A stretch of DNA of 64,000 nucleotides from Candidatus Chewarchaeum aethiopicum (GTDB lineage: Archaea > Halobacteriota > Halobacteria > Halobacteriales > Hikarchaeaceae), in assembly GCA_034190395.1 (NCBI GenBank), contig JAXINS010000021.1:51230-115229 (forward strand), given 5' to 3'. Below are positions 12,514 through 57,222 of this stretch, one piece after another (position 1 is the stretch's first letter; each line of letters begins with the position of its first letter). The notes under the pieces were generated by a model. It did no database searches. It was not told where the DNA came from and saw only the letters and a list, made by a program, of their open reading frames with translations. A program made the position numbers and the translations under genes.

Positions 12514-13464
12514 GTGACCGAGCTTGGCGATGGCTGGTACTCCCGTCGACGGGCGATCGGGGGCCTCCTTTCGATGGCCGGGACGTCTCTTGCTGGCTGT
12601 ACCGGGGTCCTCGATCCCGACCGCACCGACGGTGACTCGACCGGCGGTTCGAGGCCGCCGGTTTCGATTCTCGCCGCTGGCAGCCTCCAGCTGGCACTGT
12701 CGGAGGGGTTGGCTGCGCTGGTCGATGTGCCACTCCGGATCGAGGCCCACGGATCGACGACCGTGGCACGCCTCGTTGCCGATGGCAACCGGACGCCGGA
12801 TATCGTTTCGCTGGCCGATACTGCGCTTTTCGATACGCTGCTGCCCGCCTCCTGGTACGCTGTCTTCGCGAGCAATGCGATCGTCATCGCGTATAACACC
12901 GACACTGATGGTGGACAGCGGGTGGCTGCGGCGGGCCAGGACGCATGGTTTCGCTCCCTGCTTCGCGACGATATTTCACTTGGTCGGACCGACCCCGATC
13001 AGGATCCGCTCGGCTATCGGACGCTGTTTATGCTCGATCTTGCCAGCCGCTACTACGATGGAGTGGCCGATCTCCGGTCCCGACTGACGAGCAGAGAGCA
13101 ACTCTATCCCGAGACCGCCCTGCTCAGCCAGTTCGAGACTGGCGCCATCGATGCCGCCGTCGTCTATCGCAACATGGCCGTCGAACGCGATTTCGATTAT
13201 ATCGAACTCCCCGACGAAATCGATCTGAGTAATCCCGACTTCGTCGAGGACTGGTATTCGACGGTTGCGTACGAGCTCCCTTCCGGAGCGACCGTGACTG
13301 GCGATCTCATCAGCTACGGAGCGACAACGCGTCGGCTGAGCCAGCCGATCATCGATGTCTTTAGGGCCCACGTCACCGGTGAGTATCTCACGGAGTACGG
13401 TTTCATCGTTCCCGACAACTTCCCTCGATACCCCGGTGATGTTCCCGACTCGATCCCCGAGTGA
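12514..13464 (+). CDS. molybdate/tungstate ABC transporter substrate-binding lipoprotein (WtpA/ModA-like)
   Basis: Twin-arginine motif SRRRAIGG plus lipobox LAGC. ILAAGSLQLAL and RTDPDQDPLGYRTL are typical of archaeal oxyanion-binding proteins. GTG start. Confidence 0.7.
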   Translation: MTELGDGWYSRRRAIGGLLSMAGTSLAGCTGVLDPDRTDGDSTGGSRPPVSILAAGSLQLALSEGLAALVDVPLRIEAHGSTTVARLVADGNRTPDIVSLADTALFDTLLPASWYAVFASNAIVIAYNTDTDGGQRVAAAGQDAWFRSLLRDDISLGRTDPDQDPLGYRTLFMLDLASRYYDGVADLRSRLTSREQLYPETALLSQFETGAIDAAVVYRNMAVERDFDYIELPDEIDLSNPDFVEDWYSTVAYELPSGATVTGDLISYGATTRRLSQPIIDVFRAHVTGEYLTEYGFIVPDNFPRYPGDVPDSIPE

Positions 13465-13489
13465 CCGCCGTTGGTTTGCCCCCGACTGG

Positions 13490-14251
13490 ATGACCGTTAG
13501 CGTCGTCCTCGGGAGCGTCTTGGTTCTCTATTATGTCGTGCCCTTGCTTGCGATGTTCGTCGCCCAGCCGTGGTCGGTGGTCCTCGCTAGGATGGCTGAT
13601 CCGACCGTCATCGCCGCCGCGACGACCTCGCTCCTTTCGGCATCGATCACGACCGTCATCGCCGCGATCTTCGGTGTGCCACTCGCCTACTGGCTCGCCC
13701 GGACCGAAGGTCGGTGGAAACCGGCTATCCATGCCGTCGTGGTATTGCCGTTGATCCTCCCACCGACGGTCGGCGGGCTCGTGTTGCTCACAGTCATCGG
13801 ACCGAACACACCGATCGGTACCGCCGCCGGGACACTCGACATCGCGCTGACTCGCTCACTCATCGGTGTGATTCTCGCCCAGACGTTCGTCGCCTCGCCC
13901 TTTACGATCGTGACCGCGACCGCTGCCTTCGCGGGGGTTGATCGCCACCTCGAGCACGCTTCCCGGACGCTTGGGAAAGGGCGCTGGACGACGTTCCGTC
14001 GGGTGACACTGCCCCTTGCCTGGCCGGGGATCGTCGCGGGGGTGACTCTGACGTTCGCCCGGGCGATGGGGGAGTTCGGCGCGACCTTGATGCTTGCATA
14101 CTATCCCCGGACGATGCCCGTGCAGATCTGGGTAGCGTTTATCGAACTCGGGGTCGCCAACGCCTACCCGGTCGCGGTGATTCTGGTGGTCGTTGCCATC
14201 GTGGCGCTCGTGATTTTGAACACCGTTGGCACGAATCCGTGGGGTGGGTAA
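13490..14251 (+). CDS. ABC transporter permease (ModB/WtpB-like)
   Basis: Internal ATG of track ORF 13355..14251, lying after the upstream stop. Polytopic, with a binding-protein-dependent transport motif region (..FARAMGEFGATLMLAY..). Confidence 0.8.
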   Translation: MTVSVVLGSVLVLYYVVPLLAMFVAQPWSVVLARMADPTVIAAATTSLLSASITTVIAAIFGVPLAYWLARTEGRWKPAIHAVVVLPLILPPTVGGLVLLTVIGPNTPIGTAAGTLDIALTRSLIGVILAQTFVASPFTIVTATAAFAGVDRHLEHASRTLGKGRWTTFRRVTLPLAWPGIVAGVTLTFARAMGEFGATLMLAYYPRTMPVQIWVAFIELGVANAYPVAVILVVVAIVALVILNTVGTNPWGG

Positions 14252-15306
14252 CCGTGCTGGTTCTCGAAGCCATCGAGAAATCCTTTGAAGGATTCGAACT
14301 CGGCCCGATCGATTTGTCGGTCGATTCGGAGGTGCTCTCGGTGTTGGGCCCCTCCGGCTGTGGGAAGACGACCTTGCTCTCGATTATCGCCGGTATCACG
14401 ACGCCGGATGAGGGATCGATCGCACTCGATGGTGTCCAGCTTACCGACCGACCACCCGAGGATCGCGGGACAGTGTTGCTCTTTCAGAACCGGTCGCTGT
14501 TCCCGCATATGACCGCCCGGGAGAATCTCCAGTATGCGGCGGCACCGTCGGCTGATATCGAGACCCTCGTCGCTACGCTTGAAATCGGGGATATCCTCGA
14601 TCAACAGGCGGCAACGCTCTCGGGTGGTGAAGGCCAACGGGTAGCACTGGCACGAGCGCTGGCGGCCGATCCGGCGGCCCTGCTGTTGGATGAGCCACTC
14701 GCGAATCTCGATGCCCCGATCAAACGTCGGTTGCGTGACGATCTGCGTGACCTACTGACCCCGCTCGACATTCCGGTACTCTATGTCACGCATGACCAAA
14801 CGGAGGCGAGCAGTATCGGCGATCGACTCGCGGTCATGCACGACGGCCAGTTCATCCAGGAGGGATCGCCGGCGACGGTGTTCGAACGACCGGCGACGCC
14901 CTTCGTCGCCTCGTTTACCGGCAGCCAGAACGTCTTTCGGGCTACCGTCGAGCCTCCCGAGGACACGGCGATCCTCCGGTGGGGCGACCAGCAGTTGACG
15001 GTCGCCGGGCAGCCATCCATTGTTGACGGGTCGGTCTGGGTCTCGATTCGGCCGGAACAGATCGAACCGGTCGCTGGGACGGCCGAGGTCACGAACTCCA
15101 TACAGGGGACGATCGTCGATCGCGTTTTCGAGGGCGGTACCCATCGACTCACCCTCTCGTTCGACGGTACCGACGACCCGCTCACGATGACGGTGCTCCC
15201 GCCGACGTATCGACATCACGAACTCGCGAAACGGGACCGGGTCACGGTCTCGATCCCACCGGAGGCCATCCATCTGATCGCGGCCGATAGTAACGGCTCG
15301 ACCTGA
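14239..15306 (+). CDS. ABC transporter ATP-binding protein (ModC/WtpC-like)
   Basis: Walker A GPSGCGKTT, signature LSGGEGQRVALARAL, Walker B LLLDEPL, and a C-terminal TOBE-like region. The start may instead be the GTG at 14254, just after the permease stop. Confidence 0.85.
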   Translation: MGWVTVLVLEAIEKSFEGFELGPIDLSVDSEVLSVLGPSGCGKTTLLSIIAGITTPDEGSIALDGVQLTDRPPEDRGTVLLFQNRSLFPHMTARENLQYAAAPSADIETLVATLEIGDILDQQAATLSGGEGQRVALARALAADPAALLLDEPLANLDAPIKRRLRDDLRDLLTPLDIPVLYVTHDQTEASSIGDRLAVMHDGQFIQEGSPATVFERPATPFVASFTGSQNVFRATVEPPEDTAILRWGDQQLTVAGQPSIVDGSVWVSIRPEQIEPVAGTAEVTNSIQGTIVDRVFEGGTHRLTLSFDGTDDPLTMTVLPPTYRHHELAKRDRVTVSIPPEAIHLIAADSNGST

Positions 15307-15618: not shown

Positions 15619-16713
15619 ATGGCCGGTTTTGAGATCTCCAAACGCGATCTGGGGGGTGCTTATTTGTTCAGCTTGGCCATCGGATTCGTCCTGGCGGTCG
15701 GGGTCAATCTGTACCTTTATCCGCTACGGGAAGCCTCGATCGTCATCGGCGCAGCCAGCGGCGGCCTCCTCGCGCTTTCGCTTGTCTACGTCGGTATCCG
15801 GATCTATCGAAGCAATCTGAACGATGAACAGGTCTGGACCATCTCCCAGTGGAGTTCGGTTGGGCTCGGTATCACGACGCTGCTCGCCGTTTTTGGTATC
15901 TTTACTTTCGATCTGTGGACGGCGTTGGGACCGACGTACTTTCTCAATCTGAGCGCTGCCGGTGGCGTGACGGGAGCGCTTGTAGCGTCAATTCACAGCT
16001 TGCAGACGGAGAATCGACAAACCGTCCGGCTCTACCGACGGAATATCGTCCTCCAACGAGTCCTGCGCCACAATATCCGCAATAGCATGAACGTCATGCG
16101 AGGGTATGCCGACATCCTGGAGGACGATCTCCAAGGTCCTAACGAAGAGATGGCCGAATCGATCCGTCGCCAGGCTGATTCGGTAGCGAGCCTCAGCGAG
16201 ACGGTCCGGGATTTCACGTCTCTCGATGCGGATCGCACGACCAAGTCGGTCGATATCGTCTCCTTGCTCGACGCTCAACTCGACGCGTTCACTGAATATC
16301 ACCCATATGTGACCATCGAACGAACGATGCCCGCGGAGGCTTGGGGCCGGGTCGATGATCTCCTCGAAGTCGCCGTCTGGCATCTCCTCGAGAACGTCAT
16401 CCACTACAACGACGATCGAGCCCCCACCCTCTCTCTTTCCGTCTCGACGGACGCCGATACGATCACGGTCCACCTCAGTGACGACAGCACGGGCATCCCC
16501 CAACAGGTCCTTGCCGCCGTCCGACAGGGCCAGGAAACCCAACTCGAACACACCGATGGACTCGGACTCTGGCTGGCCAAATGGCTGATCGAAGATTACG
16601 GCGGCGAAATCCGGTTCGATGACGATGACGCGGCGGGGACCGACGTCCGGTTTACGATCCCCCGAGCAGAGCAACCGGTCCAGCCGACCAACGAGGTGGA
16701 GGTGGTCGCCTGA
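15619..16713 (+). CDS. membrane sensor histidine kinase (4 TM, HisKA + HATPase_c)
   Basis: Four N-terminal hydrophobic helices; H-box VLRHNIRNSMNVMRGYADIL; ATPase motifs ..NVIHYN.., DDSTGIP, GLGLWLAKWLIEDYGGEI. Confidence 0.85.
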   Translation: MAGFEISKRDLGGAYLFSLAIGFVLAVGVNLYLYPLREASIVIGAASGGLLALSLVYVGIRIYRSNLNDEQVWTISQWSSVGLGITTLLAVFGIFTFDLWTALGPTYFLNLSAAGGVTGALVASIHSLQTENRQTVRLYRRNIVLQRVLRHNIRNSMNVMRGYADILEDDLQGPNEEMAESIRRQADSVASLSETVRDFTSLDADRTTKSVDIVSLLDAQLDAFTEYHPYVTIERTMPAEAWGRVDDLLEVAVWHLLENVIHYNDDRAPTLSLSVSTDADTITVHLSDDSTGIPQQVLAAVRQGQETQLEHTDGLGLWLAKWLIEDYGGEIRFDDDDAAGTDVRFTIPRAEQPVQPTNEVEVVA

Positions 16714-17618
16714 TGGCATCTGGGGCGGTCGCGCAGTTTTCCGGGTCGATCCTCGGCGATATTCCCCACGCCGATGGACCGACCACCTCAAAGATAACCC
16801 TCGATCAGGATCGGCTTTGTGTCGACTCCGCTCAACTCCCGGACGACGATGGGGAGATCGACGATGAGTGGAGCATCGAAATCCCGCTCGCGTCGGTCTT
16901 CGATATCGTTCTCGGGCCACCACCACAGGCGATTGCCGATCACTTCACGACCGAGACGGTTACTATCGCCTATGATGAGGACGGACGAAGCGTCCTCCAT
17001 ATCGGACATCCTGACGAATCCACTCTCTCTCGATTCGGCAATATCCTCTTTATGAGCATCCTCAACGAGACCGATATCGTTTTTCGCCATCCCGCCGAAA
17101 TCGGCGGCCGGGTTACGGGTCAATCATCCGCTCCAGGGGAACTCTATCTTCGAGAAAACACCGTTCAGGTCCTCAACCCGACTGGATCGTTTACAATCCC
17201 ATCGAATGCCGTGATCGATTTTTCGACCCAGCAACGCGAATTCGACGACGAAGCGCTCCCCTGTGTTTCGGTTTCGTATCTCCGTGACGGCACTTCGATT
17301 CTCGCCGAGATCGCGGTTGATTCCCAACGGAAGATCAATCTCCTCGGTCGCTTTTTGCGCCGGAAATACCGGAAGTTACGCCGTGAGCTCAGTGATTTCG
17401 AACTCTCCGAGGACGAAATCGAGGTGTTGACCAAGCTGTATACCCTTGGGGGCCAGGCAAAGGTCCGATCACTGCTCTCGGAGCGATCCCGACAGTCGAT
17501 CGAGAAGCTGGCGAAACTGGACGGTCGTGGATTGGTCACCGTCGAGGACGGTCTGGTAACGATGTCTCCCGAGGCTTGGATCATCGTCACCGATGAGATC
17601 GAAGTCGTAAACACATAA
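16713..17618 (+). CDS. CheF-family (archaeal DUF439-like) protein
   Basis: The start overlaps the kinase stop (TGATG). The layout matches my recollection of CheF: ..KITLDQDRLCV.., ..IPLASVFDIVLG.., ..TVTIAY.., FRHPAEIGGRVTG, ..RKINLLGRFLRRKY.., and a C-terminal LSEDEIEVLTKLYTLGG wHTH-like tail. Not verified by search. Confidence 0.6.
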   Translation: MASGAVAQFSGSILGDIPHADGPTTSKITLDQDRLCVDSAQLPDDDGEIDDEWSIEIPLASVFDIVLGPPPQAIADHFTTETVTIAYDEDGRSVLHIGHPDESTLSRFGNILFMSILNETDIVFRHPAEIGGRVTGQSSAPGELYLRENTVQVLNPTGSFTIPSNAVIDFSTQQREFDDEALPCVSVSYLRDGTSILAEIAVDSQRKINLLGRFLRRKYRKLRRELSDFELSEDEIEVLTKLYTLGGQAKVRSLLSERSRQSIEKLAKLDGRGLVTVEDGLVTMSPEAWIIVTDEIEVVNT

Positions 17619-32209: not shown

Positions 32210-32974
32210 TTAGCTCGTTCGGCAGGACAGCACCCCCCTCTCTTCGAAGCTTGACGATAAAGACTGGATCGTCTGTTGGGTGAGGTTTTTGACCGCTCGT
32301 CGAAACCGCTCGGAAGCCGCCGTCTCGGAAATACCGAGCCGTTCCGCGAGATCAGCGAGCGCCGTCTCGCGGGGAATCTCCAAAAAGCCACACTCGACCG
32401 CCTCGATGAGAATCTCCTGTTGGGGCTCGGTTAGCTTCGGTCCATCACTCCCGATCCAATCGGTCCGTTCGTACAGACTGTGAAACGTCCAGTCGATATC
32501 TTGTGTCCGATAGAACCGATAGATCTCTTCGGCGGCTTCACGGTCAGGGAGTTGTACCCGACACCGCCACCCATCGCAGGTACCGATTGCCCGCTGGAGT
32601 AATCCACCGACTTCGTTCGTCTTCAGCGAGAGGTTCGTCTCCTGACCGCGCTCGGTCAAATCGACACAATAGAGACGACGGTCTTCGGTCGCCGAAAGCA
32701 CCTCCGGCCGTTTCGTCCCCGGATCGGCATCAACCGCGGCCTCGAACGCCTCGAAGTCATCACACCGTACCCAGACGATCATCTGTTTCGGACCGGCGAG
32801 CTGGTCGGACGTCTGTTCCCACACGATCTCGACCTCGGGAAGCGCTCGAAACGGTTCACGGAAAATCGGATGATCCAGCTTGACCTCCTCTCGGCCCTTC
32901 AGGGCGGAGATTCCCACGTTGGGAGTTGAAGGTTTGCAGTCCGGTCGGCATGACCGGACTCCTGGCGGGGCCAA
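32210..32974 (-). CDS. HTH_10 (Bat/DmsR-type) transcription regulator, start uncertain
   Basis: C-terminal LTEPQQEILIEAVECGFLEIPRETALADLAERLGISETAASERFRRA. The family-typical N-terminus begins near ..VKLDHPIFREPF... The 25-30 residues upstream (MAPPGVRSCRPDCKPSTPN..) are basic, Cys-rich and atypical. The GTG at 32918 is an alternative start. Confidence 0.75.
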   Translation of the reverse strand: MAPPGVRSCRPDCKPSTPNVGISALKGREEVKLDHPIFREPFRALPEVEIVWEQTSDQLAGPKQMIVWVRCDDFEAFEAAVDADPGTKRPEVLSATEDRRLYCVDLTERGQETNLSLKTNEVGGLLQRAIGTCDGWRCRVQLPDREAAEEIYRFYRTQDIDWTFHSLYERTDWIGSDGPKLTEPQQEILIEAVECGFLEIPRETALADLAERLGISETAASERFRRAVKNLTQQTIQSLSSSFEERGVLSCRTS

Positions 32975-35741: not shown

Positions 35742-36386
35742 ATGGCCGATGATACCGACGCCGGTCGTGACAACGAGCTGTCGGCGACGGAGACCGACCG
35801 CTTCTCGGCGACGACCGATGACGAGACACCCATTGAAGTCGGCGATTTTCGCGAAAAACACGTCCGCATCGTCACCGATGACGGCGAGGAAATCGACCAC
35901 AGCTCGGTGTATTTCAAACACTCGGCGACGGAGTTTATTGTCTCACAGGATCCGGACTTTCCACCCGAAGACACCGAACGGTATTCGAAGGATGAGGTCG
36001 CAACCGCCGAAATCACCCAACACCATTCGGCGTGTTTCATTACGACCGCCACGACTGGCAGTGGGTCGACGCTTGAGCGGCTTCGTATCTTCCGTGATGA
36101 GGCCCTTTCGGCGTCACCGATCGGCCGGGGCTGTATCGCGCTCTACTACGCGGTGAGTCCCCCTATCGCCGCTACGCTGGACCGATACCCACAAAGCGTG
36201 CCGACACGGGTCGTCCGGTGGCTCGTCCACCGATGCGGGGACCTCGCGGCTCGTCGCGGGGAAACCCGTTCGTCACTCCGACGGGCGGGGTTTTCAACGA
36301 TTCTCGTTGGGCTGTATATGATTGGCATCGTGCTAGCCGGCGTGGGTCATCTGGGCCTTCGATGTCGGGAGTTCCTTACCGTGTGA
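35742..36386 (+). CDS. CFI-box-CTERM-type protein with acidic cytosolic-looking N-terminal domain
   Basis: ..HHSACFITTATTGSGSTLERLRIFRDEALSASPIGRGCIALYYAVSPPIAATL.. matches the CFI-box motif (C-F-I-x-T-A .. LR.FRDE .. YY..SPP.A). It is followed by a C-terminal TM helix. No signal peptide is seen. Confidence 0.6.
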   Translation: MADDTDAGRDNELSATETDRFSATTDDETPIEVGDFREKHVRIVTDDGEEIDHSSVYFKHSATEFIVSQDPDFPPEDTERYSKDEVATAEITQHHSACFITTATTGSGSTLERLRIFRDEALSASPIGRGCIALYYAVSPPIAATLDRYPQSVPTRVVRWLVHRCGDLAARRGETRSSLRRAGFSTILVGLYMIGIVLAGVGHLGLRCREFLTV

Positions 36387-36917
36387 TCACCGTCGGTAGA
36401 ACCGTCGAATGCTCTCCAGCGGCGTGAAGCCGAGTTCGTATTTGACATCACAGGCGAGCTCGTGGTTGCTCGCCGTTTCGCGGAGTTCGTCGGCCAGCGC
36501 CTCGAACTCGATGTCATCGTGGAGCCGATAGGCGTGAGACGCTTCCCTTGCCGGGTAGATCGCCAATTTCGGTCGTCCCATCCAGCTGCCGTCATAGAGA
36601 ACGATCCGGTCGATGGCGTCGTAACTGAACCAGTAGACCGAGTCCGCCCGGAGGAGCACCTCATCGAGCCCATGGATGTCGTAGATCGCCTGCATCGAGG
36701 CGGCTTCACGCCGATGACGCTTGGCCCCAAGGCCGAACATCGGCGTGATGTAGGCATATTCGGCGATATGGAGGCCGTCGTCGGCAAAGAAAATCTCCGC
36801 CATCCGGAGGGGGAACGAGCCGGTCATCCCAAAGTGGACGTGGGTTTCGACCTCGATCGCCGTTGAGGGAAACTGGTCGACATCGTCGGGATCGATGTCC
36901 ATCTCCTCGATCGACAT
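36387..36917 (-). CDS. hypothetical protein
   Basis: 176-aa acidic ORF lying 6 nt downstream of the preceding minus-strand gene. I recognise no family. Confidence 0.5.
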   Translation of the reverse strand: MSIEEMDIDPDDVDQFPSTAIEVETHVHFGMTGSFPLRMAEIFFADDGLHIAEYAYITPMFGLGAKRHRREAASMQAIYDIHGLDEVLLRADSVYWFSYDAIDRIVLYDGSWMGRPKLAIYPAREASHAYRLHDDIEFEALADELRETASNHELACDVKYELGFTPLESIRRFYRR

Positions 36918-37434: not shown

Positions 37435-39177
37435 TCAGGCGAGGAAGCCGGAGGCGTCCTCGGCCCCATCGACGGTGCCACTTTTGTCCATCTTTCCGCG
37501 GGCCGATCGATACATCGTGTAGACCTGCACGACCAGCGCGATCACCCAGAGGAGGTAGCCACCGGGGCTCGAACTCACGACGTCGACCGTCGTCGCAAAC
37601 GACGAAAGGCCAACGCGGCTGACCAAGGTGTCACCGATCAGCAGGACGCTGAAGTAGCCGAAGAAGCCCGTCGCCCACCACATGGCGACGACTCGTGCCC
37701 AGCCCGGTTGGGTGTGTTCGGGCAGGCGAGTCGTGTTCATGATGATCGACAGGGCGTTATACGGCCACATCATCACGCCGGCGATGGCGGCACCGAGCAC
37801 CAGCAGGATCCACGGCTGCTGGAACTGAGCGCCGATGATCAGGATGCCCCACAACGTAAAGAGGGTCAGTAGTCCCCAGAACACACGATTGAGGTCCCAG
37901 CCCGCGCCGCGGCCGTACATCTCAAAGAGGATGTCGACGCTGTTGCGGACGAAGGACTCGGTGATCGCGTATTGGGTGCTGAACAGCGCGATGAAGATCA
38001 CCGCATACAGCAGGAACTGATTGAGCGGCCCGAGCTGTGGGATCACCACGTTGATCCACATGTTGATCGCGCCCTGGTCAGTGCCGGCCGCGAACTGGGC
38101 CGTGATCGTCATCGCGATCGTCGCGACGATCAGCAGACCCAACACGAAGGTCAGGAAGTGTTCCTGCTGGGTGACGCGCCACCATTCCTTCCAGCGGCGC
38201 AAGTTCTTCTGGGTCGGCTCGAACGTGAAGCCGTTCGCCTGGATGTCCTCCGGTTCGGCACCGCGAAGCGGGTTCTTGATCCGCCCTTGGTAGGTCGCCA
38301 TACCGTAGCCTTTCTCCCGGGACCAGACGCCCTGGGAGAGGTTCACGTACCCGCCGGCACCCGCGTAGGCGAGCCCGCCAAGAAACACTGCGATGTCCAT
38401 ATCGCCGGGCAGGGCGCCGAAGTTAATCGCCCCCGCCGGGACGTTGGCCAACTGACCGATCGAACCAACGATGAACACCAGGATGACCGCGGCGATGACG
38501 GCGATGATCATCAAGGCCACCTGGGCCTTCTCGATGATGTTATAGAGGATCGGGCCAGCCTGGTAGGACAGCCAGATCACAATCATCGTCAGCACGCCGA
38601 TAATCGGCCAGCTCGACGTGCTCATGCCGATCCAGTCGGCCAGTACCTTCGAGGATCCGGCTGCCCAGCCGGGCCAACCGACGTGGATGAATCCCGCGAT
38701 GAGGAAAAACCACGGCCAGATACTGTGGACGCGGTCAAGGCCTCGGAAGATCGATTCCCCGGTCGCGATCGTCCAGCGTTGCAGCTCCGTGTTGATGAAG
38801 AACTGCGTGATCACGCCGACCCAGAAGGCCCAATAGAGGCCCCAGCCGTTCTGGGCGATGATCGTCGGCCAGAACATCGTTTCACCCGACCCCAGCGATG
38901 CGCCGAGCATGACGGCACTGGGGCCGACGATGTGGCTGACCTTTGGCACCTTCGGCATCTCGGTGAGCTTGTAGTTGCCCTTGCCGCTGGTGTCCGGATA
39001 CTCGCTGGTTTCGGGTGCGGTTTCGAGCTCGTCGTAGTTGAGCTCTCGATAGACTGTTTGTCGATACTGTTCCCCGACTTCTACTGGCGCGAAAATGTCG
39101 TCGTCGGCGACACCGCCGTCTGGCCGTACATCAGAGCCGGTCTCTGATGTTGATGCTGAGTCCGTGTCCTTTGACAT
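37435..39177 (-). CDS. polytopic transporter, Nramp-related family (tentative)
   Basis: ~580 aa with >=11 hydrophobic helices. The ..IVGPSAVMLGASLGSGETMFWP.. block resembles Nramp-related archaeal transporters but lacks the canonical DPGN. I chose the ATG at 39177 (MSKDTD..) over 39216. Confidence 0.5.
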   Translation of the reverse strand: MSKDTDSASTSETGSDVRPDGGVADDDIFAPVEVGEQYRQTVYRELNYDELETAPETSEYPDTSGKGNYKLTEMPKVPKVSHIVGPSAVMLGASLGSGETMFWPTIIAQNGWGLYWAFWVGVITQFFINTELQRWTIATGESIFRGLDRVHSIWPWFFLIAGFIHVGWPGWAAGSSKVLADWIGMSTSSWPIIGVLTMIVIWLSYQAGPILYNIIEKAQVALMIIAVIAAVILVFIVGSIGQLANVPAGAINFGALPGDMDIAVFLGGLAYAGAGGYVNLSQGVWSREKGYGMATYQGRIKNPLRGAEPEDIQANGFTFEPTQKNLRRWKEWWRVTQQEHFLTFVLGLLIVATIAMTITAQFAAGTDQGAINMWINVVIPQLGPLNQFLLYAVIFIALFSTQYAITESFVRNSVDILFEMYGRGAGWDLNRVFWGLLTLFTLWGILIIGAQFQQPWILLVLGAAIAGVMMWPYNALSIIMNTTRLPEHTQPGWARVVAMWWATGFFGYFSVLLIGDTLVSRVGLSSFATTVDVVSSSPGGYLLWVIALVVQVYTMYRSARGKMDKSGTVDGAEDASGFLA

Positions 39178-39357
39178 CTGCACACCCCCGCGTTGATCAC
39201 AACGGTGGGTTACCAACCGATTACGCCACTACATGCCACGGTAGCCCCTATCGTGGCTATCGATAACAATACCCTCTACTGATATTAATTCTATCGGTAT
39301 TTAAACGGAAATGAAGTTAGTTAATTGACAAATAGGAGGGTGTCGATGCCGCTGACG

Positions 39358-46646: not shown

Positions 46647-47246
46647 TCACGCTTCCATCCGGTTCATCAGATCGACCAGTTCCTCGAGGTCAGGAAACAT
46701 ATAGGCCATCAGCCGGACGTCGGCATCCGGCACCTGGATCTCCGAATCGAACAACAGGGCCAGGTCATAGGGCATCGAGCCGAGCAGGTCATCGACGATC
46801 TGGTCGCTTCGTCCGACGGAGAAATGCGGTGTCGAGATATCGATCGTCGTGTTCAACGCGTTCGCCCAGCCGTCGATGAAGGCGCTGGTCATGATGTTAG
46901 CGATCTCCTGGATCGCGCTCTTTTCCATCTCGCTGAAGCCGGCGCCATCGCTCGTTTCGCCCATATCGCCGACCATTCGGCTGGCGAGGTATTTCGCGCT
47001 GGCGCCGTCCAATAAAAAGAGGATATGGCCGTGTGGGGCTTCCACCAACTCGACGCTGATGCCGATCCGTTCAGCCTCCCCGACATGGGCTTTCAGATCG
47101 GCGTGATCGATGAAGTTGATCCGCGTTAAGGTTGTCTCGGTCTCGACGTTGATCATCTGACCCAGATCACGGGCGACTGTCGTCCCGCCTTTGCGGGCCA
47201 TCTCGTTGAACAACCGGAGCTTCCGAATATCGATCAGCAGGCTCAT
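46647..47246 (-). CDS. cheC: CheC-family protein (CheY-P phosphatase-like), single intact active-site motif
   Basis: MSLLIDIRKLRLFNEMARKGG.. (23rd codon of the track ORF). The second-half motif S-AIQ-E-IA-N, then 22 residues, then P (EKSAIQEIANIMTSAFIDGWANALNTTIDISTP) fits D/S-x3-E-x2-N-x22-P. The first-half motif is not intact. Confidence 0.7.
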   Translation of the reverse strand: MSLLIDIRKLRLFNEMARKGGTTVARDLGQMINVETETTLTRINFIDHADLKAHVGEAERIGISVELVEAPHGHILFLLDGASAKYLASRMVGDMGETSDGAGFSEMEKSAIQEIANIMTSAFIDGWANALNTTIDISTPHFSVGRSDQIVDDLLGSMPYDLALLFDSEIQVPDADVRLMAYMFPDLEELVDLMNRMEA

Positions 47247-47580
47247 GACAGGCTCTCCGTCGGGGCGTACCCGGTCTTCGGGCGACCCGACCTTAATTCG
47301 TGGGTTGTACACGCGTTATCTGCGCGGTGAACTCCACGCGGCCTAATCGCGGGCTCGCATCGTTAAGACGGAGGTGGTCGGGCAGCTGACTCCAGGTTGA
47401 TCGGCCCCCGACTGGCCGGTTTTTCGAACGGACCCGATGATGGCACCCGCTTGCGTCGCTTGGATACGCGAGCGATGAACAATCGGTACGTCGGCCGTGG
47501 TCTCTTCTGGGTCGAGCGCCGATTGTTCGAAATCAACCGGTACAGCAAGCGTTTTGCCAGTCACGGTTGAACGACGGGTA

Positions 47581-48211: not shown

Positions 48212-48700
48212 ATGACCGACGCGTTCTGGTATCCGTCGGTCGAAGACATTCTCGACATCCACGAGGACATCGTCTCGGAGTATCCCGACACCAGCCCTGG
48301 GATACAAAGGCGTGGCGACATCGAATTCGCTCTGGAATACATCAGCGAGGGGTGCCTCGGGCCGGTCTCAGAGACGATTCATGAGAAGGCATTTCATTTG
48401 CTTCGGCTCCTCGTCGCTAACCATCCGTTCGTGGACGGCAACAAGCGTACCGCACTCAACGTAACGACCGTGTTCTATCTGCTCAACGGGTATCGGCTCG
48501 ACTACGACGACGAGATTCGAAAAATACTGAAGCAGTTCGGAACGGACGAAACGACGGTCGATAAGGACCACGTGCTCGAATATCTCCGAACTCATACGAT
48601 GGAGGCTGATCTGAATGGAGTGGTCGGCCAGTGGCGAGACGACCTGGTTGCGTACGGACTCGATCAACTGTCCGACGATTCATCGGATCCGAACGATTAA
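48212..48700 (+). CDS. doc: Fic/Doc-family toxin (death-on-curing type)
   Basis: Doc-type Fic motif HPFVDGNKRTA within ..AFHLLRLLVANHPFVDGNKRTALNVT... 162 aa, with an acidic C-terminal extension. Confidence 0.85.
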   Translation: MTDAFWYPSVEDILDIHEDIVSEYPDTSPGIQRRGDIEFALEYISEGCLGPVSETIHEKAFHLLRLLVANHPFVDGNKRTALNVTTVFYLLNGYRLDYDDEIRKILKQFGTDETTVDKDHVLEYLRTHTMEADLNGVVGQWRDDLVAYGLDQLSDDSSDPND

Positions 48701-55245: not shown

Positions 55246-57222
55246 ATGGCCGCGATCGCACTCCGGGACGTTCTTGCTGTTTTCGAGAATCAACACACGT
55301 CGGGGACGCCCCTGACTGCGCCCGAAGTCGCCGATGCACTCGATTGTACCCGCCGGACCGCTCACAAGAAACTCACGAAGCTGGCTGAACAGGACGTCCT
55401 ACGGACGAAGAAAGTCGGTGCGCGTGGACGGATCTGGTGGCGCCCAGTCGAACCCCCGTCGTCAACGACTGCTCTCGATACCGATTCGGCTCCGGCTGAC
55501 CGACGCGAACGGCCGGCCCATCGCCAAGCGCTCCGCGAGCTGCACGATGCCAGCCGTGAGTTGATGCGAGCGGAGACTCACGAATCGGTGGCCAACATCG
55601 CTGTCGAGGCCGCCCAACGCATCCTCGGGTTGCCGTTGAACGGTCTCTGGCGCTATGACCCTGATCGTGACGTCCTTGAGCCGATCGCCTGGACCGACCC
55701 CGGGGCCGAAGAATTCGGGCCGCCGCCCGCCTTTCCGATCGACGACAGCCTCGTCGGCCAGGCTTTCCAGGAGGGTGCCTTTCGTGTCTACGACGATGTC
55801 CGTACCGAAGAAGGTCTGTATGATCCCGACACCCGAGTGCGGAGTGAACTCATCCTGCCCCTCGGTGAGCACGGCGTATTGAACGCCTCCTCGCTTGCGG
55901 TTGGCTCGTTCGATGCGATTGACGTCTCGCTCGGACGGATTCTCGCGGCCAACGTCGAAACAGCATTAGAACGGGCCGATCAGCTCGAAGCCCGACGGGC
56001 ACGTCGTCGGGAACTTCGACGGCAGCGCGACGAACTCGACCGATTGAACCAAATCAACGCCCTCATCGAACAGACCATCGGGGCGCTCATCGAGGCCGCC
56101 ACTCGTGACGAGATCGAGGAGACTGTTCAGGGACAACTGGCTGCGTCGACTGTCTACGCCGACGCCTGGATCATCGAGCGGGATACTGCCAACGATACGG
56201 TCGTTTCCAGAGCGGGCTCGGACCTCGATTGGGCCGTCACCGATCCCGCCGAATCGGAAACGCACACCGGTGCGATCGTCGATGCTATCGAGACGCGTGA
56301 GGTCCGTGCCGTTTCGATTCCCGTCGATCCGGATCGCTCCACAGCGCCCCAACTGCCGTCGTCGACGGCCTCCTTGCCCTGTCTTGTGGTCCCGCTTGCC
56401 TACGCCGATACCGTCTTTGGCGCGTTGCTGGTTGCCGCTCCCGAGGCAGGACAGTTTAGCGACCGCGAACGGACCGCCTTCGAGACGCTTGGTCGGGTGG
56501 TCGGCTTCGTGATCAACGCGACGAACAATCGACAACTGTTGGTCGGAAACACGGCTGTTGAGTTGGAGGTGGCGCTCCGAAACACGGATGTCTGGTTTCT
56601 CGCTGCTGCCGATCACCATGACACGACCGTCAGGATCGAGGGTGTGATCCCGACCACCGCCGACACAGTGGTGGCCTACGTCCGCGTCGACGGTACTGAA
56701 GAAGCGACACCGTCGTTTGAGACTGTGGCCGACTCGATCGACACCCGCGTGCTTGCGACCAGTGAGGATAGTCAGTTCCTCGAGTGTACGATCCACACCG
56801 AGGCGGGTTTACGCCGGATCGTCGAGTACGGGGCCACGATACAAACAGCGAAAGCAACCGACGGCCATGCGACGATTACCGCCCGATTTCCGGCGACGAC
56901 GAGCCCGCGCGAGGCAATGGCACTCATCGAGGAGGCGTTCCCCGATCCGGAACTCAACGCCAAACGGGTGGTCGATCTCTCCGATCGTTCGCTTTTGACG
57001 ATCCGCCAACGACTCACCGACCGCTTGACCGAAAAACAACTGGCGGCTCTCCGGGCGGCCTTTCTCGCCGGCTATTACGCCAGGCCTCGGCGAACGAGTG
57101 CCCAGGATCTCGCTGCGTCCTTGGATATCGCGCCCGCGACCCTCCACCAGCACCTCCAGGCCGCACACCGGAAAGTGCTCGATGCGGTGCTTGCGGACGT
57201 CTCGATCGACGACGCCATTTGA
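55246..57222 (+). CDS. Bat-type regulator: N-terminal wHTH + GAF domains + C-terminal HTH_10
   Basis: N-terminus ..LTAPEVADALDCTRRTAHKKLTKLAEQDVL... Central GAF-like regions. C-terminus LTEKQLAALRAAFLAGYYARPRRTSAQDLAASLDIAPATLHQHLQAAHRKVL. Confidence 0.8.
   Translation: MAAIALRDVLAVFENQHTSGTPLTAPEVADALDCTRRTAHKKLTKLAEQDVLRTKKVGARGRIWWRPVEPPSSTTALDTDSAPADRRERPAHRQALRELHDASRELMRAETHESVANIAVEAAQRILGLPLNGLWRYDPDRDVLEPIAWTDPGAEEFGPPPAFPIDDSLVGQAFQEGAFRVYDDVRTEEGLYDPDTRVRSELILPLGEHGVLNASSLAVGSFDAIDVSLGRILAANVETALERADQLEARRARRRELRRQRDELDRLNQINALIEQTIGALIEAATRDEIEETVQGQLAASTVYADAWIIERDTANDTVVSRAGSDLDWAVTDPAESETHTGAIVDAIETREVRAVSIPVDPDRSTAPQLPSSTASLPCLVVPLAYADTVFGALLVAAPEAGQFSDRERTAFETLGRVVGFVINATNNRQLLVGNTAVELEVALRNTDVWFLAAADHHDTTVRIEGVIPTTADTVVAYVRVDGTEEATPSFETVADSIDTRVLATSEDSQFLECTIHTEAGLRRIVEYGATIQTAKATDGHATITARFPATTSPREAMALIEEAFPDPELNAKRVVDLSDRSLLTIRQRLTDRLTEKQLAALRAAFLAGYYARPRRTSAQDLAASLDIAPATLHQHLQAAHRKVLDAVLADVSIDDAI

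Follow-up and report, generated by a model that had tools for sequence, protein, structure and literature searches.

A membrane histidine kinase paired with a divergent CheF paralog outside che clusters in uncultured Halobacteriales: a candidate signalling pair

Introduction

To our knowledge, CheF alone connects the archaellum with the bacterial-type chemotaxis system, and so far it has been treated as a protein of che clusters. In canonical CheF, the C-terminal domain (CTD) dimerises and binds CheY-P, and the PH domains dock to ArlCDE (PMC9126983). Helix alpha8 contacts CheY-P, the C-terminal tail reaches the active site of CheY, and the C-terminal carboxylate has been suggested to aid CheY-P dephosphorylation (PMC9126983). 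According to a 2009 report, CheF genes are located in the che gene region. Precedents for diverged copies are CheF2 (of the H. salinarum OE2404R type), whose genes lie within che clusters next to a HEAT protein, and the two extra DUF439 paralogs of Haloarcula marismortui; the latter are said to resemble the main CheF group, with no kinase link reported, and are set beside the copies studied here by description only. On the sensor side, HisKA_4TM and REC-HalX are known parts of haloarchaeal two-component systems (PMC5847659).

The CheF gene described here breaks the che-region rule, as no che/arl operon was found in the 64-kb window (the whole stretch of 64,000 nucleotides that was analysed) or near 13 other pairs of the same kind. 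It follows the gene of a membrane histidine kinase (HK), and we compare this HK-CheF pair with its relatives in other genomes and with the described systems.

Results

The features of the locus are listed in Table 1. Both open reading frames were found where the first-pass annotation had placed them, and the TGATG coupling that it had proposed is borne out by the sequence: the junction reads gccTGATGgca, with the stop codon TGA at 16711-16713 and the ATG at 16713-16715, so that the base at 16713 is common to both genes. The CheF-like motifs quoted at that stage are likewise present in the 301-aa translation. Neither phmmer (three REC queries) nor a REC HMM that recovered its positive controls detected a receiver domain in the window, in agreement with the earlier reading. 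The location outside any che/arl operon held in so far as no such operon was detected in the window by a homology scan or by Pfam analysis of about 40 window genes. On the other hand, a solitary CheC-family gene at 46.6 kb had been overlooked; it lies about 29 kb from the HK-CheF pair among metabolic genes, and the window is therefore not wholly free of che-type genes.

Table 1. Positions of the features in the window and the evidence for each.
Feature	Coordinates	Strand	Evidence
Kinase gene, 364-aa membrane sensor (HisKA_4TM + HisKA + HATPase_c)	15619..16713	+	ORF, Pfam
HisKA_4TM, haloarchaea-specific 4-TM sensor region, aa 46-122	15754..15984	+	PF16926, 28.3 bits, cutoff 22.6
HisKA/DHp domain, aa 147-204	16057..16230	+	Pfam 35.7 bits; H box VLRHNIRN
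HATPase_c catalytic domain, aa 247-350	16357..16668	+	Pfam 49.4 bits; HK853 alignment
TGATG stop/start overlap of kinase and CheF-paralog genes	16711..16715	+	sequence
CheF-paralog gene, 301-aa, divergent, HK-linked clade	16713..17618	+	PF04283, AF2 model, Foldseek, tree
Two tandem PH-like beta-sandwich domains, aa 7-117 and 120-202	16731..17318	+	model secondary structure, Foldseek, PMC9126983
Long helix (LGRFLRRKY) and C-terminal domain, aa 205-300	17325..17612	+	model, alignments
Solitary CheC-family gene	46647-47312	-	PF04509, 49 bits

The assignment of the downstream protein to the CheF family was confirmed with the PF04283 (CheF-arch) profile, which matched far past its cutoff (E=2.2e-29, 103 bits, cutoff 25) and covered aa 54-220 of the protein, corresponding to profile positions 44-217 of 218. 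An AF2 model was obtained with a pLDDT of 86.4 and a pTM of 0.80. Its best fold match in the PDB by Foldseek was CheF itself (7ovp_A, E=3e-12), followed by the tandem-PH proteins Pob3/Rtt106; a sequence search of the PDB returned nothing relevant, so 7OVP was reached by fold comparison only. The predicted model retains the CheF fold, with two PH-like domains, a long helix and a CTD arranged as in PDB 7OVP. The dN/dS value of the gene is 0.20, which indicates purifying selection, and the same applies to the kinase gene with 0.22 (window vs L014 ortholog).

The upstream product had been described as a 4-TM HisKA/HATPase kinase other than CheA, and the domain analysis agrees: HisKA_4TM, HisKA and HATPase_c were matched, and the Hpt, P2, dimerisation and CheW-like domains, which the true CheA proteins of che loci possess, were not detected in it by Pfam. 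HisKA_4TM was also found by Pfam in the kinases of L001, L019 and L098. When aligned with HK853, the predicted phospho-acceptor His151 coincides with the His in the HK853 H box ISHELRTP, the N box (LLEN) retains its Asn and the G2 box (DGLGL) is intact, while the G1 box reads DDSTG and not DxGxG, with Ser in place of the first Gly. The motif ETQLEHxDGxxLWxAKW in the HATPase_c region is conserved across the clade. The window kinase is identical to P0158 from a Halobacteriales MAG.

The same kinase was found directly upstream of the same type of CheF in 14 distinct lineages (window, L001/L014, L011, L012, L013, L015, L016, L017, L019, L096, L097, L100, L104 and L105/106), with 33-70% identity and an intergenic spacing of -23 to +30 nt in the orthologous pairs. 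On both points where the first-pass annotation could have failed, the searches thus spoke in its favour: the CheF-arch match exists, and the adjacency is conserved in other genomes. The carriers are uncultured Halobacteriales known from MAGs and metagenomes, Halodesulfurarchaeum MAGs among them. Distant HK-CheF loci have only the two genes in common, with diverse flanks and no third conserved gene found, and no receiver genes were detected in the flanks of the 14 pairs with the REC HMM, which again recovered its positive controls. The kinase orthogroup is sharply bounded, with a drop from 213 to 127 bits. Predictions were borne out both ways: the kinase was present next to CheF-clade members not seen before, and the CheF next to kinase orthologs not seen before. 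The exceptions were L010, a CheF-clade member without the kinase upstream, and L099, a kinase ortholog without CheF downstream; P0011 and P0013 are on contigs too short to inform on adjacency. Taken together, the strong CheF-arch match and the adjacency in 14 lineages support what, judged from sequence, would be a genuine functional partnership of HK and CheF away from che clusters. No description of such a pairing was found in the literature searched, in keeping with the earlier remark that none was known.

The module is rare and, among the loci found, is confined to uncultured Halobacteriales. The plasmid collection gave no match. As candidate Rosetta-stone fusions, the exhaustive search yielded 15 proteins of 580-840 aa with a CheF domain at the C-terminus. 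In each of the 10 that were tested, the N-terminal half is not a kinase and lacks any Pfam match, so that fusions lend the pairing no support.

In the phylogenetic tree, the HK-linked CheF copies form a clade of their own (16 terminals, 193/200 bootstraps), apart from CheF1 and CheF2 of che clusters. The alignment shows P70, G142, Y189, G247 and W289 as invariants specific to the clade, the last two being located in the region aa 205-300. Y189 stands in the position of an invariant His of canonical CheF1, and W289 opens helix alpha8, the CheY-P-contacting helix of canonical CheF, where CheF1 has Q/R. The C-terminus of canonical CheF1 reads HLEDVNx, whereas most members of the HK-linked clade carry unrelated, variable tails. 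The window protein ends in EIEVVNT, which resembles the canonical tail, while its W289 differs from the Q/R of CheF1; both are only sequence proxies for CheY-P binding.

Canonical CheF1 (H. salinarum OE2402F and H. volcanii CheF; PDB 7OVP) is like the window protein in its PF04283 match, its length and its architecture of tandem PH domains, helix and CTD, and the LGRFLRxxY helix and the hydrophobic core of the CTD are common to both. The two are, however, only about 30% identical and belong to separate clades, and CheF2 scores 25-36 bits against the window protein. The canonical relatives are encoded in che clusters, whereas the HK-linked CheFs follow a membrane kinase and none of them is in a che cluster.

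Orphan CheFs of the canonical type were considered as further kinase-linked cases and rejected, as their upstream genes are unrelated (none in L022, GCV_T in L030, DUF7112 in L046, an integrase in L078 and a radical SAM gene in L083). In L051, a Halosimplex MAG, a PAS kinase is located upstream of a canonical-type CheF. This was taken as chance, because other Halosimplex species have GCV_T at that position and the kinase family differs. The pattern used to scan the genome collection, [LI]LGR[YF]LR[LR][EQK]Y, fails to match canonical CheFs with the reading LRIEY, and a single CheF match in those MAGs is therefore uninformative as to a second copy.

The catalytic motifs of the CheF-linked kinases are decayed in most lineages. 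The N-box Asn needed for Mg-ATP is lost in 8/11 assessable kinases, with Y, F, T or G instead, and the G1 and G2 boxes are eroded in most of them (motif table); five further CheF-linked orthologs have the same decay of the N, G1 and G2 boxes. The window kinase is among the most intact. The His of the H box is kept in 10 of the 11, the kinase of L013 having Asp instead. A His so widely kept is not obviously needed by a purely phosphorylation-independent scaffold.

The sister kinase L098, on the other hand, has canonical catalytic motifs, and 4 nt downstream, in the slot of CheF, lies the gene of a REC-HalX response regulator (RR), an arrangement observed at this single sister locus. The Asn that follows the H-box His (His+1) was considered as a mark of inactivity and rejected, because the RR-linked and otherwise canonical L098 has Asn there too.

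Discussion

The explanation that fits best is a dedicated, co-inherited signalling pair, in which the CheF fold has been recruited to partner a sensor, in many cases a pseudokinase; taken as a whole, we judge it about evenly poised between right and wrong. The CheF-like protein would replace the response regulator as the cytoplasmic partner of the sensor. It may act as a dimer, an adaptor built of tandem PH domains and a CTD, probably in a stoichiometric complex with the DHp/CA portion of the sensor, and the membrane-derived signal would be relayed by protein-protein contacts and not by a classical His-to-Asp relay. The PH domains or the CTD could engage a target, such as the archaellum switch, a CheY-like receiver with its gene at another locus, or both.

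The first-pass annotation had offered two readings. One had the CheF fold put to a new use, as partner or substrate of the kinase; the partner part of it fits best, because L098 has REC-HalX in the same slot and the CheFs form a separate clade with their own invariants, while the substrate part is weakened, since the orthologous kinases have lost the N-box Asn in the majority of cases and mostly also G1/G2. The same losses weaken the other reading, a simple CheA-independent sensory input, which may still apply to the window lineage. As the kinase of this lineage has its His, N box and G2 box and the CheF tail is canonical-like, a step that depends on phosphorylation may occur there, by way of a CheY-type protein encoded at another locus.

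Such a CheA-independent input would run from the kinase to CheY or a single-domain receiver encoded elsewhere, from there to the CTD of the CheF paralog and on to ArlCDE, changing rotation. It could draw on the conserved H-box His, on the N-box Asn and G2 box of the window kinase, on the full CheF architecture of its partner with a tail close to the canonical one, on the CTD of canonical CheF being a CheY-P binding module (PMC9126983), and on the solitary CheC-family gene, which suggests that the organism has che-type components. We nevertheless consider it unlikely. The ATP-binding motifs are degenerate in most orthologs, and kinase activity therefore cannot be the conserved function; the window kinase itself deviates in G1; a receiver gene is near none of the 14 pairs; most clade members vary in the tail that, in canonical CheF, extends to the active site of CheY; and helix alpha8 starts with an invariant Trp instead of Q/R. 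If the membrane protein were instead an anchored sink or phosphatase, its DHp His and the Asn at His+4 would dephosphorylate CheY-P or accept back-transfer from it without ATP, the CheF-like CTD recruiting CheY-P. That the ATP site decays and the His and HNIRN persist would agree with this, and T/N at His+4 is a phosphatase determinant in HisKA kinases. The CheY-P binding of the CheF CTD and the proposed contribution of its C-terminal carboxylate to dephosphorylation would agree as well (PMC9126983). However, HNIRN is also present in the RR-linked L098 and is thus a family trait, not an adaptation, the L013 ortholog has lost the His, and no receiver was identified near any pair. In addition, the DHp domain and the CheF CTD would be expected to compete near the receiver active site, as far as can be deduced from PMC9126983 and known HK-RR complexes. 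We regard a sink or phosphatase as quite improbable.

There is little to recommend a sensor-controlled transcription factor, in which a winged-helix-like CTD would bind DNA and the membrane sensor would sequester and release the CheF paralog. A TrmB-type wHTH match at aa 226-280 is weak (E=0.087) and, at 13 bits, far under the Pfam cutoff of 25.6. Canonical relatives are named 'helix-turn-helix protein' by JGI, but the same CTD in canonical CheF dimerises and binds CheY-P, not DNA; and although the CheF-like protein takes the place of a REC-HalX regulator that may act by binding DNA, DNA binding by HalX itself is undemonstrated. That an orphan kinase and a stray CheF paralog lie side by side by chance, without any functional link, is scarcely credible. 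Orphan kinases are numerous in haloarchaea and L051 shows that chance CheF-kinase adjacency does occur, but in 14 lineages members of one kinase orthogroup are joined to members of one CheF clade, the two genes being closely spaced and having diverged together in flanks that vary, and these conservation data effectively refute chance.

To return to the recruited CheF partner, the data point to what may be a so far undescribed wiring of two-component sensors. We propose only tentatively, and with more doubt than belief, the specific path in which the RR is displaced by a CheF-type tandem-PH adaptor, giving a phosphorylation-independent 'sensor + adaptor' arrangement where an HK-like pseudokinase controls an adaptor that communicates with the archaellum switch or some other PH-domain target. 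If this displacement is true, two-component sensors would have an output mode that has gone unrecognised, and archaeal motility would be controlled by a second route as well, independent of CheA/CheY. The clade defines a distinct CheF subfamily that appears to be tied to a membrane sensor instead of CheA/CheY, which suggests either that the motor has an extra sensory route or that the CheF scaffold is reused to serve a different output. The kinases form a natural series of losses and gains: the ATP site goes, the His stays and a non-receiver partner is acquired. They may serve as a useful case for the turning of two-component sensors into pseudokinase scaffolds.

A built-in comparison is provided by the RR-linked sister pair. 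The L098 kinase, from a pair of HisKA_4TM kinase and REC-HalX, is 39% identical to the window kinase, and the H box LRHNIRN is common to both. Gene order and tight spacing are the same in the two kinds of pair, whereas the downstream product is a receiver-domain protein in one and a CheF paralog in the other, and the catalytic domain is decayed in most CheF-linked kinases, unlike in L098. Caulobacter DivL is a catalytically inactive, HK-like scaffold that has Tyr for His and binds a phosphorylated receiver. By analogy, the CheF-linked kinases may have kept the HK fold for partner binding and signal relay and not for ATP-dependent autophosphorylation. They differ from DivL, with which homology is limited to the HK fold, in that they keep the His, lose the ATP site and are linked to a PH-domain adaptor.

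The gene pair and its surroundings

The window DNA is of haloarchaeal type, with a G+C content of ~62% and acidic predicted proteins. The membrane kinase gene and the CheF-family gene, described in the first-pass annotation as overlapping in TGATG, were both recovered as ORFs (table below), and their junction reads gccTGATGgca, so that one A is common to the TGA stop and the ATG start. The kinase carries HisKA_4TM, HisKA, and HATPase_c domains, all above the Pfam cutoffs, and Pfam detected no CheA domains in it, in line with the claim that it is not CheA. The CheF-like protein scored 103 bits with PF04283 (CheF-arch; cutoff 25, E = 2.2e-29), a strong match that confirms its assignment, while an NCBIfam scan of the pair gave nothing specific beyond Pfam. 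Each protein is identical to a 'MAG: Halobacteriales archaeon' database entry, and that of the CheF-like protein already carries the name 'CheF family chemotaxis protein'.

Features of the window discussed in the text
Feature	Position	Strand	Remarks
Three-gene ABC transporter operon	12514-15306	+	substrate-binding protein, permease, ATPase; between SDR gene and kinase
Kinase gene	15619-16713	+	ORF, 364-aa protein
CheF-like gene	16713-17618	+	ORF, 301-aa protein
Short Bat-type regulator	32210-32974	-	BAT-HTH_10; no receiver domain
ORF	35742-36386	+	no Pfam match; neighbour of 593-aa ORF
ORF	36387-36917	-	no Pfam match; neighbour of 593-aa ORF
Hydrophobic 593-aa ORF	37435-39216	-	no Pfam match
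Solitary CheC-family gene	46647-47312	-	PF04509 at 49 bits, weak CheX match
Low-G+C segment	48001-50000		G+C 0.54 vs ~0.62 in remainder
Fic/DOC-family gene	48212-48700	+	inside low-G+C segment
Long Bat-type regulator	55246-57222	+	HTH_20-GAF-GAF-BAT-HTH_10; no receiver domain

As previously noted, the 64-kb window lacks a receiver-domain gene: no REC domain was found when all six frames were searched with three receiver queries, nor with a small REC HMM, although the HMM found its positive controls. Among ~40 window genes scanned with Pfam, which include transport, CoA-ligase, carboxylase, cofactor, and regulator genes, there was no arl/che operon. The placement of the pair outside any such operon therefore stands, but the CheC-family gene had been overlooked. 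This gene lies ~29 kb from the pair, flanked by an unannotated ORF of 154 aa and two genes for 2-hydroxyacid dehydrogenases, with other che genes absent nearby. The low-G+C segment may be foreign DNA.

Upstream of the pair, the window is syntenic with the related locus L014, except that the ABC transporter operon is missing there, so that these close relatives differ by an insertion or a deletion. The flanking proteins of the two loci are 88-93% identical, as compared to 69% for the kinase and 66% for the CheF-like protein. The dN/dS values were 0.22 for the kinase gene and 0.20 for the CheF-like gene. Of five flanking genes, four gave 0.07-0.10 and the remaining one 0.19. Therefore, both genes are functional, though the constraint on them is about threefold weaker than on the housekeeping genes beside them.

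Conservation of the adjacency

Close relatives of the CheF-like protein are few: among 5.8 billion proteins, a word-indexed search matched nine, and when 1.84 billion representatives were searched exhaustively with HMMER, only 157 clusters belonged to the CheF family. Homologs ~30% identical to the window protein are located in canonical che clusters, in the order CheB-CheA-CheR-HEAT-CheF-CheF or CheA-CheC-CheC-CheD-CheR-CheF. Those at 34-67% identity lie outside che clusters and, in all informative cases except one, have a window-type kinase directly upstream. Kinase and CheF-like protein diverge in parallel, with respective identities to the window of 70% and 67% at locus L001 and 35% and 40% at L013. 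One genome per GTDB species was scanned, giving 80 uniformly annotated loci. Wherever a CheF homolog reached 156 bits or more against the window protein (L014, L015, L016, L017, and L019, two of them Halodesulfurarchaeum MAGs), the window-type kinase was upstream, and below 156 bits only che-cluster CheF1 or orphans with unrelated neighbours were seen.

In a neighbour-joining tree of 166 homologs, the kinase-linked CheF proteins form one clade (16 terminals, bootstrap 193/200), and the kinase is also present beside clade member P0015, whose context was previously unseen. Scanning metagenomes with the kinase alignment added two pairs (L097 and L100). A protein search showed that the kinase orthogroup has few members and a sharp limit, scores falling from 213 to 127 bits, and a CheF-arch gene follows each of two previously unseen orthologs. 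In total, the adjacency recurs in 14 distinct lineages, with -23 to +30 nt between stop and start. The exceptions are L010, which belongs to the clade but has an epimerase-like gene upstream across a 424-nt gap, and L099, a degenerate kinase ortholog followed by a convergent gene. Distant loci have only the kinase and the CheF paralog in common, without a third conserved gene or a receiver gene across the pair loci, and no homolog was found on haloarchaeal plasmids. This shows that the two genes form a dedicated module, and their chance adjacency is effectively excluded.

Second, canonical-type CheF copies were seen far from the che cluster of their own genome in Salinibaculum litoreum (CP046866.1, L078) and Halovenus marina (L083). 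As one neighbours a phage-type integrase and the other a radical SAM/CofH-like gene, orphan CheF paralogs may in some cases be mobile.

The kinase and its sister

Kinase motifs were read from an alignment to HK853. The window kinase has its phospho-acceptor His in LRHNIRN, an N-box Asn in LLEN, and an intact G2 box (DGLGL), while its G1 box reads DDSTG instead of DxGxG. Among 11 assessable CheF-linked orthologs, ten retain the His, but only three (window, L011, and L013) the Mg-ATP Asn, which the others replace by Y, F, T, or G. In most, the G1 box has degraded or disappeared; G2 is usually G-x-E/D-L, and a protein search revealed the same ATP-site decay in five more orthologs. The motif ETQLEHxDGxxLWxAKW, by contrast, is strongly conserved. 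The L013 kinase (257-1351 of its locus) shows the opposite pattern: its N, G1, and G2 boxes fully match the canonical form, but an Asp replaces the His (LRDNIRT).

The decisive comparison, useful as an 'ancestral-type' reference, is with the sister kinase of locus L098 (282-2072), which belongs to the same HisKA_4TM family and is 39% identical to the window kinase. Its H box is as in the window and its N, G1, and G2 boxes are fully canonical; 4 nt past its stop lies a REC-HalX response regulator gene (Response_reg 74 bits, HalX 59 bits). Thus, a sister lineage combines an intact kinase with an ordinary response regulator in the downstream position, whereas kinases with a CheF paralog in that position tend towards decay of the ATP site.

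The CheF-like protein and its possible role

A confident AlphaFold2 model built with ten clade sequences (pLDDT 86.4, pTM 0.80) contains a pair of beta-sandwich domains together with a long helix and a C-terminal domain (CTD) of helical/beta type. In the PDB, the model came closest to 7ovp_A, a crystal structure of CheF (E = 3e-12), and next to eukaryotic proteins with tandem PH domains. CheF itself forms a twisted homodimer with two PH domains and a CTD (Altegoer et al. 2022, PMC9126983). When 18 clade members were compared with 36 non-redundant CheF1 sequences, P70, G142, Y189, G247, and W289 were invariant in the clade. CheF1 has an invariant His in place of Y189 and Q/R in place of W289, at the start of alpha8. 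As a side observation, P0069, P0074, P0078, P0088, P0092, P0101, P0105, P0112, and P0123 (580-840 aa) carry the CheF domain C-terminally behind ~280-500 aa without a Pfam family match, which is an undescribed fusion architecture.

The first-pass annotation offered two readings, CheA-independent input to the archaellar adaptor or a CheF repurposed as kinase partner; its interpretation is supported only in part, namely in the partnership. Of the readings weighed, the one with the strongest support, which we put at about even odds, is recruitment of the CheF fold as cognate cytoplasmic partner of the 4-TM two-component sensor. The CheF paralog would then occupy the place of the response regulator, and in most lineages signalling would be independent of ATP-driven autophosphorylation.

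The canonical CTD binds CheY-P via helices alpha5, alpha6, and alpha8, the terminal carboxylate extending into the CheY active site, and is dispensable for polar, ArlCDE-dependent localisation (PMC9126983). CheF1 ends in a conserved HLEDVNx, whereas the kinase-linked clade varies in length and composition after GWI, except in the window's own subclade (EIEVVNT, RIEQVND), which also has the most intact kinases. CheA-independent kinase input through an unlinked CheY is thus conceivable especially in the window's lineage, but on the whole unlikely. Weaker alternatives are a CheY-P sink or phosphatase, which seems rather improbable, and DNA binding by the winged-helix-like CTD, which we regard as less probable still.

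The module is rare, confined to uncultured lineages, and would be relevant to specialists in archaeal signalling. Full-text literature searches found no description of the pairing. The 2009 family-defining paper mentions two Haloarcula marismortui CheF paralogs outside the che region, with an 'elusive' function and no reported kinase link, and the census of archaeal two-component systems covers HisKA_4TM and REC-HalX without mention of CheF (PMC5847659). We rate the finding as a new CheF subfamily and a new type of partner for a two-component sensor: the protein differs from canonical CheF in lying outside che clusters and the CheF1 and CheF2 orthologous groups, but shares the sequence and fold of the family.
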